The notes under the pieces were generated by a model, which made no database searches, was not told the DNA's origin, and worked only from the letters and a program-made list of their open reading frames with translations. A stretch of DNA of 64,000 nucleotides from sequence record PX915677.1. One strand, given 5' to 3'. Shown in pieces: positions 1,871 through 42,406 of the stretch (position 1 is the first letter of the stretch; each line of letters begins with the position of its first letter). The stretch is from a phage. A program made the position numbers and the translations under genes.

Positions 1871-2779
1871 TTATGCCGCCTGACGTGCCGCCATAATTTC
1901 AGCCGCTTTACGCAATACTTCTTCCTCTTCTGCTTTCGCCGCTTGTTCACTACGGGTAGCAACCGTTGAAGAGATACGACCGCGCAGACTTTCTAACTTC
2001 TCCTGCATAGCTGCAACAGTCTTTTCCATTTCATCAGCGTATGAATCGAGTGATTCTAATTCCTTGCTTGATGCGTTCATCAGATAATCATCCGAGATCG
2101 CTACCGTTGAGGCCGTGACTTTCTTGATGAGTGAGTCGAAAGATTTTTTAACCTTGCCAACTTCTTCACTTAAGGCGATAGTATTATCGCTGGTAGCGCC
2201 ATTGCGCTCATCAGCCAGTAATTTGGCTTCAATACGGATTGCATTCAAGCGTTCAACTAAAGCGTAAATATCCTGATTAAAATCTTCCTTGTTTTTCGCC
2301 GGAATTTGCAGATGTGCCGCCACGTTGTCATTACAACCCTTGTAAAAGTTAGGGTTATCAACTTCAATTTCACGGCCTAAAGCAAAGTTTTCGAAAGCGT
2401 TTGACCAGCGAGCGCGGTTTTGTTCCATTTTGGCCTTAATTTGTGCTTCTTTCGCGTCTTCTTTAGCTTTCGCCTCACCTTCCAGATTAATCCACTTTTT
2501 ACGACCATTTGCCGCATCGGTGTTAAACTTGATAGGAGTTAAGAAAGTAATTGCAGTGGCAATCACATCCATATCACGAAAACGTTCAGTTAACAAGAAG
2601 TCAACCGCCGTCTGCAATACGTCCAGCTTTTTACCGTTACTGCGGAAGTGCTGCAAGTGCCCTAACAGGAAGTTAGAAACATCTTGTTTGATCGCCGCGT
2701 TATTGCTACGAATGTTGTTAGCCAGTGCGTTAAAACCAGATTCTTTTACCAGATTAAAGATTTTAGCCATGATATTCAC
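1871..2779 (-). CDS. Hypothetical protein, coiled-coil rich (about 300 aa)
   Basis: ORF track; long ORF with AAGGTG upstream of the MAKIFNL start; Ala/Glu/Lys-rich C-terminal region. Confidence 0.6.
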   Translation of the reverse strand: MNIMAKIFNLVKESGFNALANNIRSNNAAIKQDVSNFLLGHLQHFRSNGKKLDVLQTAVDFLLTERFRDMDVIATAITFLTPIKFNTDAANGRKKWINLEGEAKAKEDAKEAQIKAKMEQNRARWSNAFENFALGREIEVDNPNFYKGCNDNVAAHLQIPAKNKEDFNQDIYALVERLNAIRIEAKLLADERNGATSDNTIALSEEVGKVKKSFDSLIKKVTASTVAISDDYLMNASSKELESLDSYADEMEKTVAAMQEKLESLRGRISSTVATRSEQAAKAEEEEVLRKAAEIMAARQAA

Positions 2780-2789
2780 CTTTCAATTG

Positions 2790-4272
2790 TAAGGGCGCTA
2801 TTGCCCCGCTCTCTATGAGCTTGTTTAAGTCACTATTAACTTAACTATAACCGCTAACTATTCAGTAGTTATAGGTAAGTGGGGCGGTCTTATCAGGAGT
2901 TAACCTTGCCGCCCCCTTATCCGTGATGTTTCATCTGGTATCTTTAATTAGTCGCTATAAACGAAGCCGACCTGATAGCGATGATCAATCATCACAATAA
3001 GGCTATGCGTCCGACTCTATTTAATTACATTACTGTAACCGTCGGCAATATCGTCTACTTTGTTTTCGCTCCCGCTTATCCTTTTGTATCAGCTCTCTAT
3101 CGCTAGTCATCGCCCACTACGGGATACTATTGCGAAAGAGTCACTAACCGCCTAGTATTCCGGCGTTTTATATCTTTCAGCAGGTTTACTACATAACCCG
3201 ACTATGTACTTTCATCTTGTGATGAATCTCAAGCCGTTCACATCGTAAACGTTCGCATTAAACCTTATTGTTAAATAGCAATTTGCCACTTTTTAACCAC
3301 TCCCCGCCGCCCTCAATTGGGCGTTAATTCTTCGGGATTGCCTACCCTGATTAACTTCTTTCACTGTAGCACCTTGTTAGCGATGGCCGCCGCTACCCTT
3401 AACCGTGGGCGATTAGTTTAAGCCGTTGCGTGTACTCAATGAATCCGTTTATCAATGGTGACGTTTCCAGTAAGGGAATGTAAAACTGTTTACCCTGATA
3501 ATTTAGGGAGTTTTACGCCGTTTTATCTGGTATGCTTTCCGATGGTTATTATCATCAAGCATATTCAACCGATATAGGAGAATGTTTAAATTATTAAAGA
3601 GCGGTAAATCTATCAGTGTGCTTTCTCACACTATGCAACTGTTAGCCGTTGTTACGCTTTTCACTGAAGCGATGATTTGCTTAGTGAGTGCTCATTATGA
3701 ATCATGTTGTTTTCGCTGTCAACCGCTTTTTAGTCTTTTTTCGTCGTTCCCGCTATTGGGAGGATATATCAATCAGCTTTATTTGATTGAAGATTAAGCG
3801 GTGAGGCTTAACTTATGACTCATATTGTTAAAGAGCGTTTAGCCTTTTAAAGTGTCTGCTAATCACTGTCACATTGAAGGCTTACTGATTCATTAACAGG
3901 CCGCCTACACCTGAACTAATCGCTGCACTATGTGCCACCTTTCCCGCGATACGTTGATTTGGGAACTAGTTAGCGATGTTTTGCTAACTTGTGGTTAGTA
4001 TGGACTACTTTAACCACGTTTGCAACTCTTTTTATCATCTTCTTTTAATTCCTTTCCCTTATCTCGCGTGAATCTATGCGAAAGGGCAAGATGATAAGTT
4101 TTTAAAGAGCGGGATTTTTTAAGTCATCGCTGACTATGCTCACTATATATCAGGCTTTTTCCGGTGTCAATACTCTTTTTTGAGAATATTTTCACTTTCT
4201 AGCCTGATTTTTAAAGAGCGGGGGCAAGTTTCCTTGCCTTGTATGTTTTACATCGTACCCGATGAATTGAAG
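2790..4272. other. Large ORF-free region (about 1.5 kb) with four direct copies of TTAAAGAGCG(G)
   Basis: No ORF of 60 aa or more with a credible RBS on either strand; motif copies near 3591, 3823, 4097, 4210; lies downstream (minus orientation) of a TAATGTATA motif at 4273-4281. Confidence 0.6.
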
Positions 4273-4281
4273 TATACATTA
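4273..4281 (-). promoter_or_regulatory. TAATGTATA promoter-like motif, minus orientation
   Basis: Plus strand tatacatta at 4273-4281; same 9-mer found upstream of four other genes in this window. Confidence 0.35.
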
Positions 4282-4456
4282 ACCAATGATGGTTGCAATA
4301 GGGTAAAGCAAATTATTTTAAACTTTTTTATAGTGGGATAGATAAAAGAACGGGCGCGCGTGATACATCATAGGAAACGGCTTGTAAAGCAACAATAAGC
4401 GTCCTAAAACGCATCACAACGAGCTAAAAGGGAGTAAGGCATACAATCACCTCATA

Positions 4457-4482
4457 AAAGAGAAAAGCCTCACTAGGAGGCT
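4457..4482 (-). terminator. Candidate intrinsic terminator after the 6265-4559 operon
   Basis: AGCCTC(actag)GAGGCT hairpin 4466-4482 flanked on plus strand by an A-rich run 4457-4465 (T-rich on minus strand). Confidence 0.4.
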
Positions 4483-4558
4483 TACAGGAAGGATTAGAGA
4501 ATCAGATAAATTATGACCATAGGCATGACTACGGCACAATACAGGAGAAAGATTAAGC

Positions 4559-4933
4559 CTATGGATTTACACATTGACCGTTACCGGATGCCATTTCATT
4601 CATGGACTCATCAAAGAGCGTCAACGATGAGCGCATCAAGTGATCGACCGTAATTTGCTTACCAGTGGTTTCATTTACCAGTTGAATAGTTTTATCATAT
4701 GATTGTACATGTTCAAAATCATTTACATGTAAAATAATAACCTTAGGTGACTTTTTACCAGTTTCATAGTTTTCTACAATATAGGTGCACTGTAAACCGT
4801 CAACCGTAGCAGGGGAGAACGTTGCAGCCTTAACGCTACCCATAGATGACAGCAGGACACCTAACAGGAGAACAACCAGAAAGAAGCCTACAAATACTTT
4901 CACTACGAATTTAATAATACCCATGATAATCAA
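4559..4933 (-). CDS. Membrane-anchored small protein (N-terminal hydrophobic segment)
   Basis: ORF track; N-terminus IIKFVVKVFVGFFLVVLLLGVLLSSMGSVKA is signal/anchor-like. Confidence 0.55.
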   Translation of the reverse strand: MIIMGIIKFVVKVFVGFFLVVLLLGVLLSSMGSVKAATFSPATVDGLQCTYIVENYETGKKSPKVIILHVNDFEHVQSYDKTIQLVNETTGKQITVDHLMRSSLTLFDESMNEMASGNGQCVNP

Positions 4934-5023
4934 CCTTTAGTTAGAGAATGTAAGAATACAGCATATCAGCGACGAATAACGCCACCGTAGCAACGAACAA
5001 GCAACGCCAAAAATAATCATGAA

Positions 5024-23233: not shown

Positions 23234-26200
23234 ATGGCGCTGTATCCAATAAAGTCACTAGGTGCTGTAGGCGTTATCGCTGACCAAGCTCCGACAGACT
23301 TAGCTCCTAATGCTTTCACTAATGCTATAAATGCTCGATTTGTTGAGCAGAGAGTATTTAAGACGGGGGGCAATGCCCCTCTTTCTTATGTAGATGAAGA
23401 TAAGGATTTAACCCCTCTGTCTTTCGTTTCTATGCCTTTCGATTATTATAGCGCAGGTAATAGCTTTCTTGTTGTAGGTACTAATAAGAAGTTATATAAA
23501 CTGACAGATGAAAGCTTGACTGATATTAGCCGTAAGGTTGCTACAGTCACTAAGAAGGCTTCTGCCTCAATTAAGATTTATCCAGTTGTTTCTCAGATCG
23601 TTCCTAAAGAATCAACTATCTCAATGAACTTCAATCAGACCAAGAATCTAGAGGTTTCTCTTCTCCCTGCTGATGCTAACAATACCGATCTTATTTGGGA
23701 GGTTAGTAACTCATCCTATGGAAGTATTACGGTAGACCCTAGTGACTCTAAACTTGCTACTCTAACATCTTTTGAGAAAGAGGGTAATCTTGTAGTAACT
23801 ATCTCTACTGCCAATGAATCCGTAGTGGCTCAGATTGCTGTTAATATCATCGATGGTGATTCAGGCATCTTCTTGAGTCAAGATACTGTTACAATTCGTA
23901 AAGGAGGGACTACTACTCTCACGGCTGTTACTGGTAAAACTCCTGTAACTTGGTCCAGCAATAATGCTTCTATTGTATCCGTAACCCCTAACGCCAACTC
24001 TTTAACTGCTGTCATCACAGCGAACGGAGAAGGTAATGTAACAATCACTGCTGATAACGGGACTAAGACTGCTTCTTGTGAGATTGTTTCTATCCCTCAG
24101 ATTGATAGTATCTCTTTAAGCCAGTCAGATGTTACTGTGAGTAGAGGTTCTCAGTATATCTTAACTGCTACCCTTTCTCCTGCTAACGCCCCTAATCAAA
24201 ATATTACTTGGACCTCTTCTAACCCAAATATTGCAACAGTATCAGGGACTAGCACACAAGGGACGATCAACGCTCTGCTTGCTGGTTTTACTGAGATTAC
24301 AGCTACCACTGAAGAAGGTAACAGAGTTGCTGTCTGTACTGTACGTGTGGATTTAGCTGGAAGGACAATGAGAACAAGTGCTATGGCATTTGCCGCTCCT
24401 GTGTCAGAGTCAGTAGAAACTCAAGAGGAAGAAGTAGTAACTCCTCCTGAAAGTGAAGAGACGGTTTATTTTGCTGAGCCTACATCCGGTATTGATACGT
24501 CAGGGATGTATGAAGGTAACAACTTCTATGACTACTCTAACGTGAATGATATTGAAGGTTTTGCAAGAGCTTCTTTACTGGCAACCCCTTTGTCATCTGT
24601 AACCTTAGATATTGTCAGCGCTTCTCTTGATGTTGGTGAAGAGATTGTCATTACAGCCACAGCTTCTCCAGAAGGTGAGTACTCTTATCAGTGGTCTGTT
24701 GATAAAACTGGTTATGTTTCTACAACTTCAGTTACTGGTAAATCTATCAAACTGGTTGCTCTTCGTAAAGGAGAGATTAACGTAACATGTACTGTCAGTC
24801 AGATGACTCAGAAAGATTACGATGCTTTTGATGACTATCCTTGGTATCACGCTGTTATCTCTAACTGTGCAGTTGCTACAACTCACTATGAAACTCCTCA
24901 GGTAAAAGAATTCGAATCAGAATACTTTGTAGATCTTCCGGGATGGGGTGAGCAAACAGTTGTTGATAATGACGGAAACCCTTCAGTCAAGAAGTTTAAC
25001 TGGAAATGTGAGAGAGTAAGATCTTTTAACAACCGTCTTTTTGCTCTGAATATGAGAGAGGCTAATGCTTCTGGTGTTACCACTAACTACCCGCTTCGTC
25101 TTCGTTGGTCTAACTTTGCCAATGAGAACAAGGCTCCTACACTGTGGGATGACTTTGCCTATGATCGAGTTGTGTCTTCGGACTTAGCTTCTAACATCGT
25201 AGGGCAGACTCAGGCTCTAGAGAATGGGTATGCTGGTTACATTGACTTAGCAGATTCTAATGGTAGCTTGATTGATATCCTACCTCTTAAGGATTACTTG
25301 TTCGTTTATACAGAGTTTGAAACGTATATTGGTTCTCCGACTAATAACACGTACCAACCTCTAATGTTCAAGAAGCTCTTTAACGACTCTGGTATCCTTG
25401 CTCCCGAGTGTGTGGTTGAAGTAGAAGGTAGTCACTTCGTAGTTACTCAGAACGATGTAATCTTACACAACGGTGCAACTAAGAAGTCAATTGCATCTAA
25501 CCGTGTCAAGAACATGCTGATTAACGAGGTGTGTCTGGTTAATCCTTTAGCAACTCGAGTACACTTGCATCAGGATAAGAAAGAAGTTTGGGTTCTCTAT
25601 GTAGGACCGGGGGAGCCAAAAGAAAGCTTCGCTTGTACTAAAGCTGCTGTATGGAATTACGAGTTTGATACTTGGTCTTTCCGTACTATCCCATATGCTC
25701 AGTGTATTGGTCTGGTTGATCCTCCTGTTTTAGAAAGAGGTCCAATCTGGTCTGACTTCCAAGAAATCACTTGGGATGACCCATCTATTAAAGAACTCGT
25801 TTGGAGAAAGGATGCAACAAACTTTAGACAGAGGGTTACGATAGTAGGTTCATTCTTGAAGGGATTCTATCAGGTGGATGTAGGCGCTCTTGATTATTTC
25901 TATGACAGGCTAAATGATGTTGTTATAGAGAAGCCTCTGGAAATGAGGTTGGAGAGGACTGGTATAGATTTTGATAATGTGACGAATGAGTGGAATCAGA
26001 AGCATATTAATAGATTCCGACCTCAGACAACTGGTTCAGGTACTTACATATTTGAAGCTGGTGGTAGTCAATTCTCAAATGAATATGGACACCCACACAC
26101 ATCTAAGACATATACGATCGGTGTTGACAGGCATGTCTCGGTGAGACTGAACCATCCATACCTTTTCTATAATGTTATAGATAATGATGTTAACAGTAAT

Positions 26201-42140: not shown

Positions 42141-42406
42141 TATTCTATTCCACGCTCTTTAAGAGCTTCTAACAATCCGTTGTGATTAGCAGCACATTCT
42201 GTGTACTGGTCCTGATACCACTCCAACGTAGTGGCTAGTGCTTTTCCTTGAGCACTCTCTAAAAGAGGTAGGTCAACCCTACATTCAGCTTTTAGGTTTG
42301 TTGGTAAGGGCATTGATTGCCTGCTGTTGTCGCTCGTTGAACAAGCTGATAAACTAAAAGCTAGCAAAATCCCCGTACAACTCAATAGCTTTTTCTTTAT
42401 ATGCAC
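42140..42406 (-). CDS. Lipoprotein (lipobox LSAC), candidate outer-membrane spanin subunit
   Basis: GTG start at 42406 with GGAAGGAG RBS; signal MHIKKKLLSCTGILLAFSLSAC; N-terminal coding overlaps 3-prime end of HNH gene. Confidence 0.5.

Follow-up and report, generated by a model that had tools for sequence, protein, structure and literature searches.

Predicted promoter-boxA modules and a candidate large structured RNA in a gene-free block of phiEco32-like coliphages

Introduction

What does a phage keep in a 1.8-kb block that holds no gene? The block in question lies in a 64,000-nucleotide stretch of sequence record PX915677.1 (hereafter the window), which belongs to a phiEco32-like coliphage of the Gordonclarkvirinae, genus Kuravirus or a close relative. 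It is the spacer separating the gp125 and gp124 homologues, and its phiEco32 counterpart occupies positions 72787-74730 of 77554 (1,944 bp). A megablast search with window positions 2700-4600 matched 98 phage records, at least 80% of the query being covered in 76 of them. The block is conserved in ~98 deposited phage genomes and is without annotation in nearly all; some annotators called small open reading frames (ORFs) in the spacer. A preliminary description, made from the letters of the window, proposed a large structured noncoding RNA (ncRNA), a replication origin or a packaging site. From the comparative analysis presented here, the block is taken, with a probability of about 0.7, to be the main early-transcription control region of the phage, encoding a large structured RNA.

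Results

Absence of a conserved protein-coding gene

Spacers were taken from 24 relatives (Kuravirus, Suseptimavirus, Nieuwekanaalvirus, and metagenomic contigs) and formed a 25-phage panel together with the window. The genes flanking the spacer are all on the minus strand. Between them the minus strand held no ORF longer than 30 amino acids (aa) and the plus strand none longer than 71 aa, bearing out the ORF-free character first ascribed to the region. The plus-strand ORF at 3582-3797, already doubted in the preliminary description, is not a credible gene, because it was intact in only 5 of 25 relatives and carried stops or frameshifts elsewhere. Across positions 2771-4558 no ORF was conserved in any frame among 25-29 related phages, and substitutions in the block tracked base-pairing and not codons. 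Relatives carrying protein genes that are frameshifted in the window would have spoken for decay or assembly error; the 25 phages showed no such conserved ORF. A protein-coding or pseudogene reading was accordingly rejected; 20 of the 25 relatives have the 71-aa plus-strand ORF disrupted.

Suseptimavirus-type phages annotate a 66-aa minus-strand ORF in the promoter-distal part of the spacer (SU7 4819-5019; PAS59 4802-5002), to which the window has no counterpart.

Four repeats resembling the rrn boxA

Four direct copies of TTAAAGAGCG(+), pointed out in the preliminary description, were recovered in the spacer. On the minus strand they read CGCTCTTTAA, with the shared 9-mer at 3594-3602, 3828-3836, 4102-4110 and 4211-4219. 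The full sense-strand repeat is CGCTCTTTAA[A/C/T]AA, or CGCUCUUUAA[A/C/U]AA as RNA. The 9-mer GCTCTTTAA occurred six times in the 64-kb window, four times in the spacer, against an expectation of 1.05, and none of 100 shuffles reached six. The two further matches are on the plus strand at 25375-25383 and 42154-42162.

The E. coli rrn boxA is UGCUCUUUA, with a boxA-spacer of ugcucuuuaacaauuua, and the boxA of phage lambda is CGCUCUUA (PMC2724277). The repeats were compared with the E. coli consensus in its rrn and lambda forms, whose A/U-rich spacer contains AUU. All four window copies agreed with it, reading CGCUCUUUA followed by AAAAU, AAAAC, ACAAU or AUAAU, as did every one of the 114 copies in the spacers of 29 phages, which share the form [C/T/A]GCTCTTTAA[A/C/T]A[A/G]N. 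Since copy #3 with its next base (CGCUCUUUAACAAU) matched the rrn boxA-spacer at 13 of 14 positions and copy #4 with its spacer (CGCUCUUUAAUAAUUUA) at 15 of 17, the four sense-strand repeats are, by sequence, consensus rrn-type boxA antitermination elements, a point that the preliminary description had missed. In three of the four cases a hairpin closely precedes the element, as in ribosomal RNA (rRNA) leaders; the hairpin before boxA #1 was also found on the opposite strand by the hairpin scan.

The elements were strongly strand-biased in the 25-phage panel, with 3-5 sense copies per phage and 0-1 antisense copies per 2.7 kb. The distant relative phage 7-11 showed no boxA enrichment.

Coupling of boxA copies to predicted promoters

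A promoter scan of the minus strand yielded three sigma70-type promoters, P_A, P_B and P_C, each upstream of a boxA (Table 1). Within the 29 spacers a boxA followed 68 of 74 strong sense promoters at a distance of at most 160 nucleotides (nt). Copies lay 23-143 nt 3' of a -10 hexamer, with spacing that differed among phages, and the coupling persisted where the flanks were unalignable (SU7, TH34 and Bas88 lineages). In the window the four copies are on the transcribed strand, promoter-proximal, and followed by 0.9-1.5 kb of untranslated RNA; the predicted untranslated leader measures ~918, 1,366 or 1,494 nt, depending on the promoter used. Transcription of the region as a long leader, as proposed earlier, is consistent with these promoters and boxA copies. 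The right-end operon, whose last gene precedes the spacer, is headed by a strong promoter of its own (TTGACA-16-TATAGT, 6331-6304) with a short leader and no boxA, which would fit a placement of boxA only where a long untranslated RNA comes next.

P_B and P_C correspond to early promoters predicted in phage SU10 at 73996 and 73511; SU10 has a weaker one at 73668, ahead of its counterpart of boxA #3 (PMC4281155). The promoter before boxA #3 is degenerate in the window (GTGACA-16-TTAAAA) and reads TTGACA-16-TAGAAT in the SU7/EK010/TH34 lineages. At the position of P_A relatives carry TTGACA-16-TAATAT or a similar sequence.

In the preliminary description transcription had been assigned to a phage-type motif, TAATGTATA. 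This motif is present on the minus strand at 4281-4273, where it overlaps the -10 hexamer of P_A, but it is not a conserved driver, because it occurred in only 5 of 30 spacers (those of the window and four relatives). To judge from their hexamers, the conserved promoters are the near-consensus sigma70 promoters and not the TAATGTATA site.

The terminator-like hairpin seen earlier upstream of these promoters is also present: a minus-strand stem at 4483-4465 is followed by TTCTCTTTT, and the homologous site in SU10 is annotated as a terminator. The SU10 paper describes a terminator after CDS121, the gp125 homologue, and does not mention boxA (PMC4281155).

Covariation and strand of the RNA

The last 900 nt before the gp124 ATG, in the sense orientation, were folded with RNAalifold as an alignment of 29 unique sequences. 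The real sense alignment gave an energy of -446 and 273 pairs, 93 of them covarying, compared with -259 to -277, 230-263 pairs and 14-23 covarying pairs in nine column shuffles. The gp124 coding gene of the same phages gave -267, with 30 of 245 pairs covarying, and the antisense strand -370, with 68 of 254. A second alignment fold contained 231 consensus pairs, of which 79 had compensatory changes; shuffles gave 32.3±3.2 (0 of 500 reached 79) and slid registers 9-12. Cells were paired in 99.2% of cases; the corresponding figures were 94.4±0.1% for shuffles and 34-47% after sliding the 3' partner by 1-3 columns. Compensatory substitution was above the phylogeny-preserving controls, and the column-shuffle and coding-gene controls agreed.

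Consensus pairs contained 762 G·U cells and 19 A·C cells, an imbalance that makes the minus strand the RNA strand and excludes a DNA cruciform. Single-sequence folds had z-scores of -6.5 (sense) and -3.6 (antisense); the fold was strand-specific and more stable than shuffles. The alignments show that the predicted untranslated RNA at ~3651-2771, about 850 nt in length and contiguous with gp124, folds into a conserved architecture. The earlier candidate of a large structured ncRNA gains support from this very strong covariation and strand-specific G·U pairing, and the comparative check named with it, covariation across homologous regions of related phages, upheld a consensus structure. Pseudoknots were not detected when additional covarying helices were sought beyond the nested structure, at the low power that 29 close sequences allow.

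Conservation of the block adjoining gp124

Mean pairwise identity of the noncoding positions 2790-3822 was 0.861 (25 phages, three genera). In gp124 of the same phages it was 0.837 over all positions, 0.678 at codon position 3, and 0.659 at four-fold sites. Between the window and SU7 the noncoding block was 86% identical, the gene 75%, and third positions 56%. Invariant in all 25 phages were AGATTTACCGCTCTTTAA (3611-3594, 18 nt) and the 20-mer ACGGTTAAGGGTAGCGGCGG (3406-3387). The RNA at ~3651-2771 is under purifying selection about as strong as that on the neighboring protein-coding gene.

Anatomy of the RNA and layout of the spacer

The consensus comprised 41 helices, arranged as two multi-helix domains of ~280-300 nt and a row of 3' hairpins (Table 1). 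Many helices of domain II covary fully, for example H26 (6 of 6 pairs). The GGGGCGG/CCGCCCC stem singled out in the preliminary description proved to be helix H36 (2915-2909 / 2887-2881), with compensatory changes at 5 of 7 pairs across relatives; in H38 (2874-2865 / 2854-2845) 5 of 10 pairs covary. A putative outer helix, H3, would join 3609-3599 (AUUUACC..UC, the flank and first bases of boxA #4) to 2784-2774, the ribosome-binding site of gp124.

In phage LAMP a peripheral hairpin region of domain II (alignment columns ~515-600) is replaced by a longer unrelated sequence and the rest is kept, which suggests that the periphery of the RNA is modular. Along 2770-3669 (minus strand) GGUUA occurs seven times against 1.3 expected, and GAUAA is enriched as well (six copies, mostly in conserved unpaired junctions); the structural contexts are mixed. 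The sequence GGUUAA recurs in a pair of invariant hairpin loops, ACGGUUAA and GGUUAACU. These motifs may be repeated protein-binding or tertiary-contact motifs.

The leader upstream of the RNA is less uniform. Between boxA #2 and #3 lies a hypervariable cassette with conserved flanks (Table 1), and Bas90, KBNP1711, ECBP2, MN05 and others carry ~185 bp extra right after boxA #2 (window ~4098), in Bas90 within sense positions 1526-1066 nt upstream of the ATG. This insert is bounded by a 10-bp inverted repeat, TGATTTGTCT...AGACAAATCA, and represents an RNA insertion closed by a stem or else a small mobile element.

Table 1. Coordinates of predicted features in the spacer and of its flanking genes (window positions)
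Feature	Position	Strand	Remarks
gp125 homologue, 121 aa	4559..4924	-	last gene of upstream operon
Intrinsic terminator	4455..4483	-	stem AAGCCTC/GAGGCTT then T-run; ends right-end operon (gp128-gp125 homologues)
Promoter P_A	4271..4298	-	TTGCAA-16-TATACT, 9/12; start ~4264; A/T-rich stretch upstream
Hairpin GGCAAG-GAAA-CTTGCC	4223..4238	-	2 nt upstream of boxA #1, position of rrn boxB
boxA #1	4208..4220	-	CGCTCTTTAAAAA
Promoter P_B	4142..4170	-	TTGACA-17-TATAGT, 11/12; predicted start near 4136
boxA #2	4099..4111	-	CGCTCTTTAAAAA; ~30 nt past P_B -10
Variable leader segment	3840..4010	-	unalignable with most relatives
boxA #3	3825..3837	-	CGCTCTTTAACAA
Promoter P_C	3694..3722	-	TTGACA-17-CATAAT, 11/12; predicted start near 3688; found in 25/25 panel phages
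Leader hairpins H1 and H2	3614..3651	-	H1 3651-3636; H2 3633-3614, loop AGAAAG, 3 covarying pairs; just upstream of boxA #4
Invariant block AGATTTAC and boxA #4	3591..3611	-	boxA #4 CGCTCTTTAATAA, itself 3603-3591
Domain I	3292..3590	-	closed by H4 (3590-3577 / 3305-3292); H5-H17; holds the invariant 20-mer
Hairpin H18	3273..3291	-	joins domains I and II
Domain II	2994..3271	-	closed by H19 (3271-3262 / 3003-2994); H20-H33
3' hairpins H34-H41	2792..2993	-	
Shine-Dalgarno AAAGGTG and gp124 ATG	2768..2784	-	ATG at 2770-2768
gp124 homologue, 299 aa	1871..2770	-	first early gene 3' of RNA; lineage-specific, no known domain

Comparison with known RNAs and distribution

Searches of the whole window against Rfam 15 gave no match at gathering thresholds, GOLLD, ROOL, group I and II introns, RNase P, 6S, transfer-messenger RNA (tmRNA) and rRNA included. 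In E-value mode positions 2600-4700 gave chance matches only (E >1; 12-20 bits against thresholds of 34-167). ARAGORN found neither transfer RNA (tRNA) nor tmRNA in the window. Mimicry of a host RNA was considered and rejected, as a blastn search with the 900 nt against 5,426 complete E. coli genomes returned no match. The two invariant blocks, scanned in IMG/VR, JGI metagenomes and GTDB genomes, were found only in phiEco32-like contigs, with the exception of one chance 21-mer match in a Muribaculaceae metagenome-assembled genome that had no further homology.

Flanking genes and genome context

The gp124 homologue begins at the annotated ATG at 2770, and the ORF lister extends it to a GTG (1871-2779). 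Many records, and PHROG 13168 as well, label the gp125 homologue 'terminase'. The protein has a hydrophobic, signal-like N-terminus and no Pfam match, and because it is also only 121 aa long the label is probably a propagated annotation error. A protein-partner search with gp124, gp125 and eight neighboring proteins gave no informative Pfam or PHROG matches; the flanking proteins are ORFans, in which Pfam and PHROG recognized no reverse transcriptase, nuclease, maturase or RNA-binding domain.

Relative to the phiEco32 map the window is circularly permuted, and its two gene arms diverge near 6.3-7.7 kb. The terminal repeat presumably lies there, at the divergent junction of the arms.

Discussion

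A proposed route of early transcription

The rrn leaders of E. coli consist of tandem strong promoters, a boxB hairpin, boxA, boxC and then a large structured RNA. A comparable order of events is proposed for the phage spacer. Transcription of the right-end operon would stop at the terminator (4483-4455), and host sigma70 RNA polymerase would start anew at three tandem minus-strand promoters (~4264, ~4136 and ~3688). Each transcript would soon carry an rrn-type boxA, to which host NusB-NusE(S10) would bind and, with NusA, NusG and SuhB, render the polymerase Rho-resistant, as in rrn operons and CRISPR arrays. So modified, the polymerase would traverse the 0.9-1.5 kb of untranslated sequence and continue into gp124 and the early genes. 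Nus-modified transcription may also aid folding of the RNA during its synthesis. With less confidence, the RNA itself is seen as a functional product, the first made from the main early promoters; it probably acts as RNA or ribonucleoprotein in host take-over and would also serve as the 5' leader of the early messenger RNA (mRNA). Shielding of long untranslated RNAs from Rho by boxA has been described (PMC7665894).

Several points weigh against this scheme. The promoters from which the region would be transcribed are predicted ones, and boxA #3 lacks a good promoter in the window. Binding of NusB/NusE and Rho sensitivity of the leader are read from sequence identity. The boxA copies may serve another purpose, such as the control of elongation rate or folding, since strong structure by itself makes an RNA a poor substrate for Rho. 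The excess conservation of the block could partly reflect its recent recombination between lineages, and the covariation argues against recombination as the whole explanation. Helix H3 has no covariation support; both of its arms are invariant, so covariation offers no test of it. Action of the RNA in trans is conjectural, and the RNA may be a cis leader only.

Alternative explanations

A purely cis-acting 5' leader, without function in trans, is possible although doubtful. Such a leader would shield the long early mRNA against Rho, RNase E and 5'-end-dependent decay, and would gate gp124 through a helix masking its Shine-Dalgarno sequence. Because no terminator lies between the RNA and gp124 the two would be co-transcribed, H3 would pair the AUUUACC by boxA #4 with the GGUGAAU of the ribosome-binding site (a change in TH34/Bas88 keeps the pair), and T7 likewise has a processed leader after boxA. 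Shielding and gating would be far exceeded, however, by ~850 nt with 41 helices and invariant unpaired or loop blocks of 18-22 nt; the gating helix lacks covariation, and the RNA block is conserved more than the gene it supposedly regulates. A bolder view, offered tentatively and rather unlikely as it stands, makes the ~850-nt RNA an ornate RNA that acts in trans, assembled from RNA only or with protein as a ribonucleoprotein. It would be the very first product of the main early promoters, obtained by borrowing the antitermination and folding machinery of host rRNA, and would serve host take-over or counter-defence. In a variant, the four boxA copies on an abundant transcript would titrate NusB/NusE away from the host rrn operons. 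In T7 the gene at the equivalent position encodes the anti-restriction protein Ocr. The Gordonclarkvirinae are reported to resist restriction-modification systems to an unusual degree and to have no known inhibitor (PMC11990801).

Readings at the level of DNA fared less well. ColE1 RNA II is a structured, ORF-free primer of ~550 nt, and T7 and T4 have transcription-activated origins; large gene-free regions with strong promoters often harbor phage origins. The spacer might by analogy specify a promoter-driven structured primer RNA or an R-loop, with repeats and structure acting in initiation, and the excess of G over C in the 3' half of the sense RNA (GC skew +0.19 to +0.30 across 3360-2910) would favor R-loops. 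Yet such an excess is also typical of structured RNAs, and the skew tracks gene orientation only, with no inflection or switch at the locus and a cumulative minimum at ~6-7 kb, where the gene arms diverge. Regular iterons or DnaA-box-like repeats were not noticed, although no dedicated scan was made; the repeats that are present are exact host boxA sequences on one strand, set at uneven intervals (109, 274 and 234 nt) and coupled to promoters, and covariation with G·U pairs across the whole 850 nt indicates a folded RNA product. An origin, one of the functions first suggested for the block, found no specific support and is improbable. The same facts bear on the still less probable view that a protein of phage or host recognizes the four repeats as DNA sites (iterons or operators). 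Their arrangement as direct repeats outside coding sequence would suit such sites, but they have an identical core in common with the E. coli rrn boxA (up to 13/14 and 15/17 with spacer), copies stand always on the transcribed strand, 23-143 nt past a -10 hexamer at distances that vary by phage, and T7 has the same element after its early promoters.

Least credible of all is a pac site or genome terminus, or a set of decayed or frameshifted protein genes. The locus does lie near the record ends in many deposited genomes, and the small ORFs called by some annotators would suit decay. The phiEco32 spacer is nevertheless 2.8 kb inside the mapped right end, and the annotated terminal repeat of PAS59 is 2 kb beyond the spacer, so that the packaging site of the preliminary description falls away: in neither phage does the spacer coincide with a virion DNA end or terminal repeat. 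Against decay stand the want of any ORF conserved in any frame among the 25 phages and substitutions that follow base-pairing.

Relation to known systems

The closest kinds, by analogy, are the promoter-boxA design of rrn operons and T7 for production and GOLLD and ROOL for the type of RNA. Shared with the E. coli rrn leader are tandem near-consensus sigma70 promoters, a hairpin just before boxA, a boxA of the CUUUA type (lambda has CUUA) with a spacer, AAUAAUUUA, that resembles rrn AACAAUUUA, and a long untranslated structured RNA immediately 3'. The phage differs in that its product is not rRNA, transcription would run on into protein genes, four boxA copies replace the one per rrn operon, and use of Nus factors is deduced from sequence.

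T7, also a virulent coliphage podovirus, has three tandem early promoters for host RNA polymerase (A1, A2 and A3, starts 498, 626 and 750), then a consensus boxA, CGCTCTTTAACAAT, at 812-825 and its first early gene, 0.3, at 925. This boxA lies 63 nt past the A3 start and is without annotation in the RefSeq record. T7 has one boxA and a ~110-nt leader, against four copies and an RNA of ~850 nt supported by covariation here; its region is at the genome end, whereas here an operon of 2.3-2.8 kb and a terminator come before. Host transcripts protected by boxA (PMC7665894) also place it ahead of an unusually long untranslated transcript, against Rho termination, but make another RNA product, and here the bearer is a phage with several boxA-promoter modules. 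The lambda nut sites likewise put a boxA on a phage early transcript that engages host Nus factors, as would be the case here. The lambda boxA, CGCUCUUA, needs N on a downstream boxB; the spacer has a consensus boxA with the hairpin upstream, and none of the flanking ORFans was recognized as an N-like protein.

GOLLD and ROOL (PMC12286853, PMC5737381) are similarly phage-encoded, 600-800+ nt in length, rich in covarying helices and without an obvious protein partner. The phage RNA has no sequence or structure match to them in Rfam, and where they occur near tRNA islands and widely in Firmicutes-type phages, it occurs in only ~100 Gordonclarkvirinae coliphages, as a boxA-driven early leader.

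Promoters and terminator of the spacer had already been predicted; the boxA modules and the structured RNA are apparently new for this phage group. No paper was found in which boxA or an ncRNA is connected to phiEco32 or Kuravirus, and an earlier mention of a long leader in the primary phiEco32 papers is possible.

Significance for the phage family

For annotation, the consequence is that ~100 deposited genomes leave a 1.8-kb block blank or fill it with spurious small ORFs. RNAs longer than 500 nt are rarely supported by such dense covariation; the majority proved to be ribozymes or ribonucleoprotein scaffolds, and RNA cages have recently been added to these. The family is virulent on E. coli, easily grown and under development for therapy, and some members plate on O-antigen-restored K-12 (BASEL collection), so the function of the RNA is directly testable. 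The promoter-boxA modules suggest that a lytic phage copies the strategy of rRNA operons, Nus-dependent, Rho-proof and chaperoned, for a noncoding RNA. If true, boxA biology would no longer be confined to rRNA, lambdoid nut sites and CRISPR arrays.

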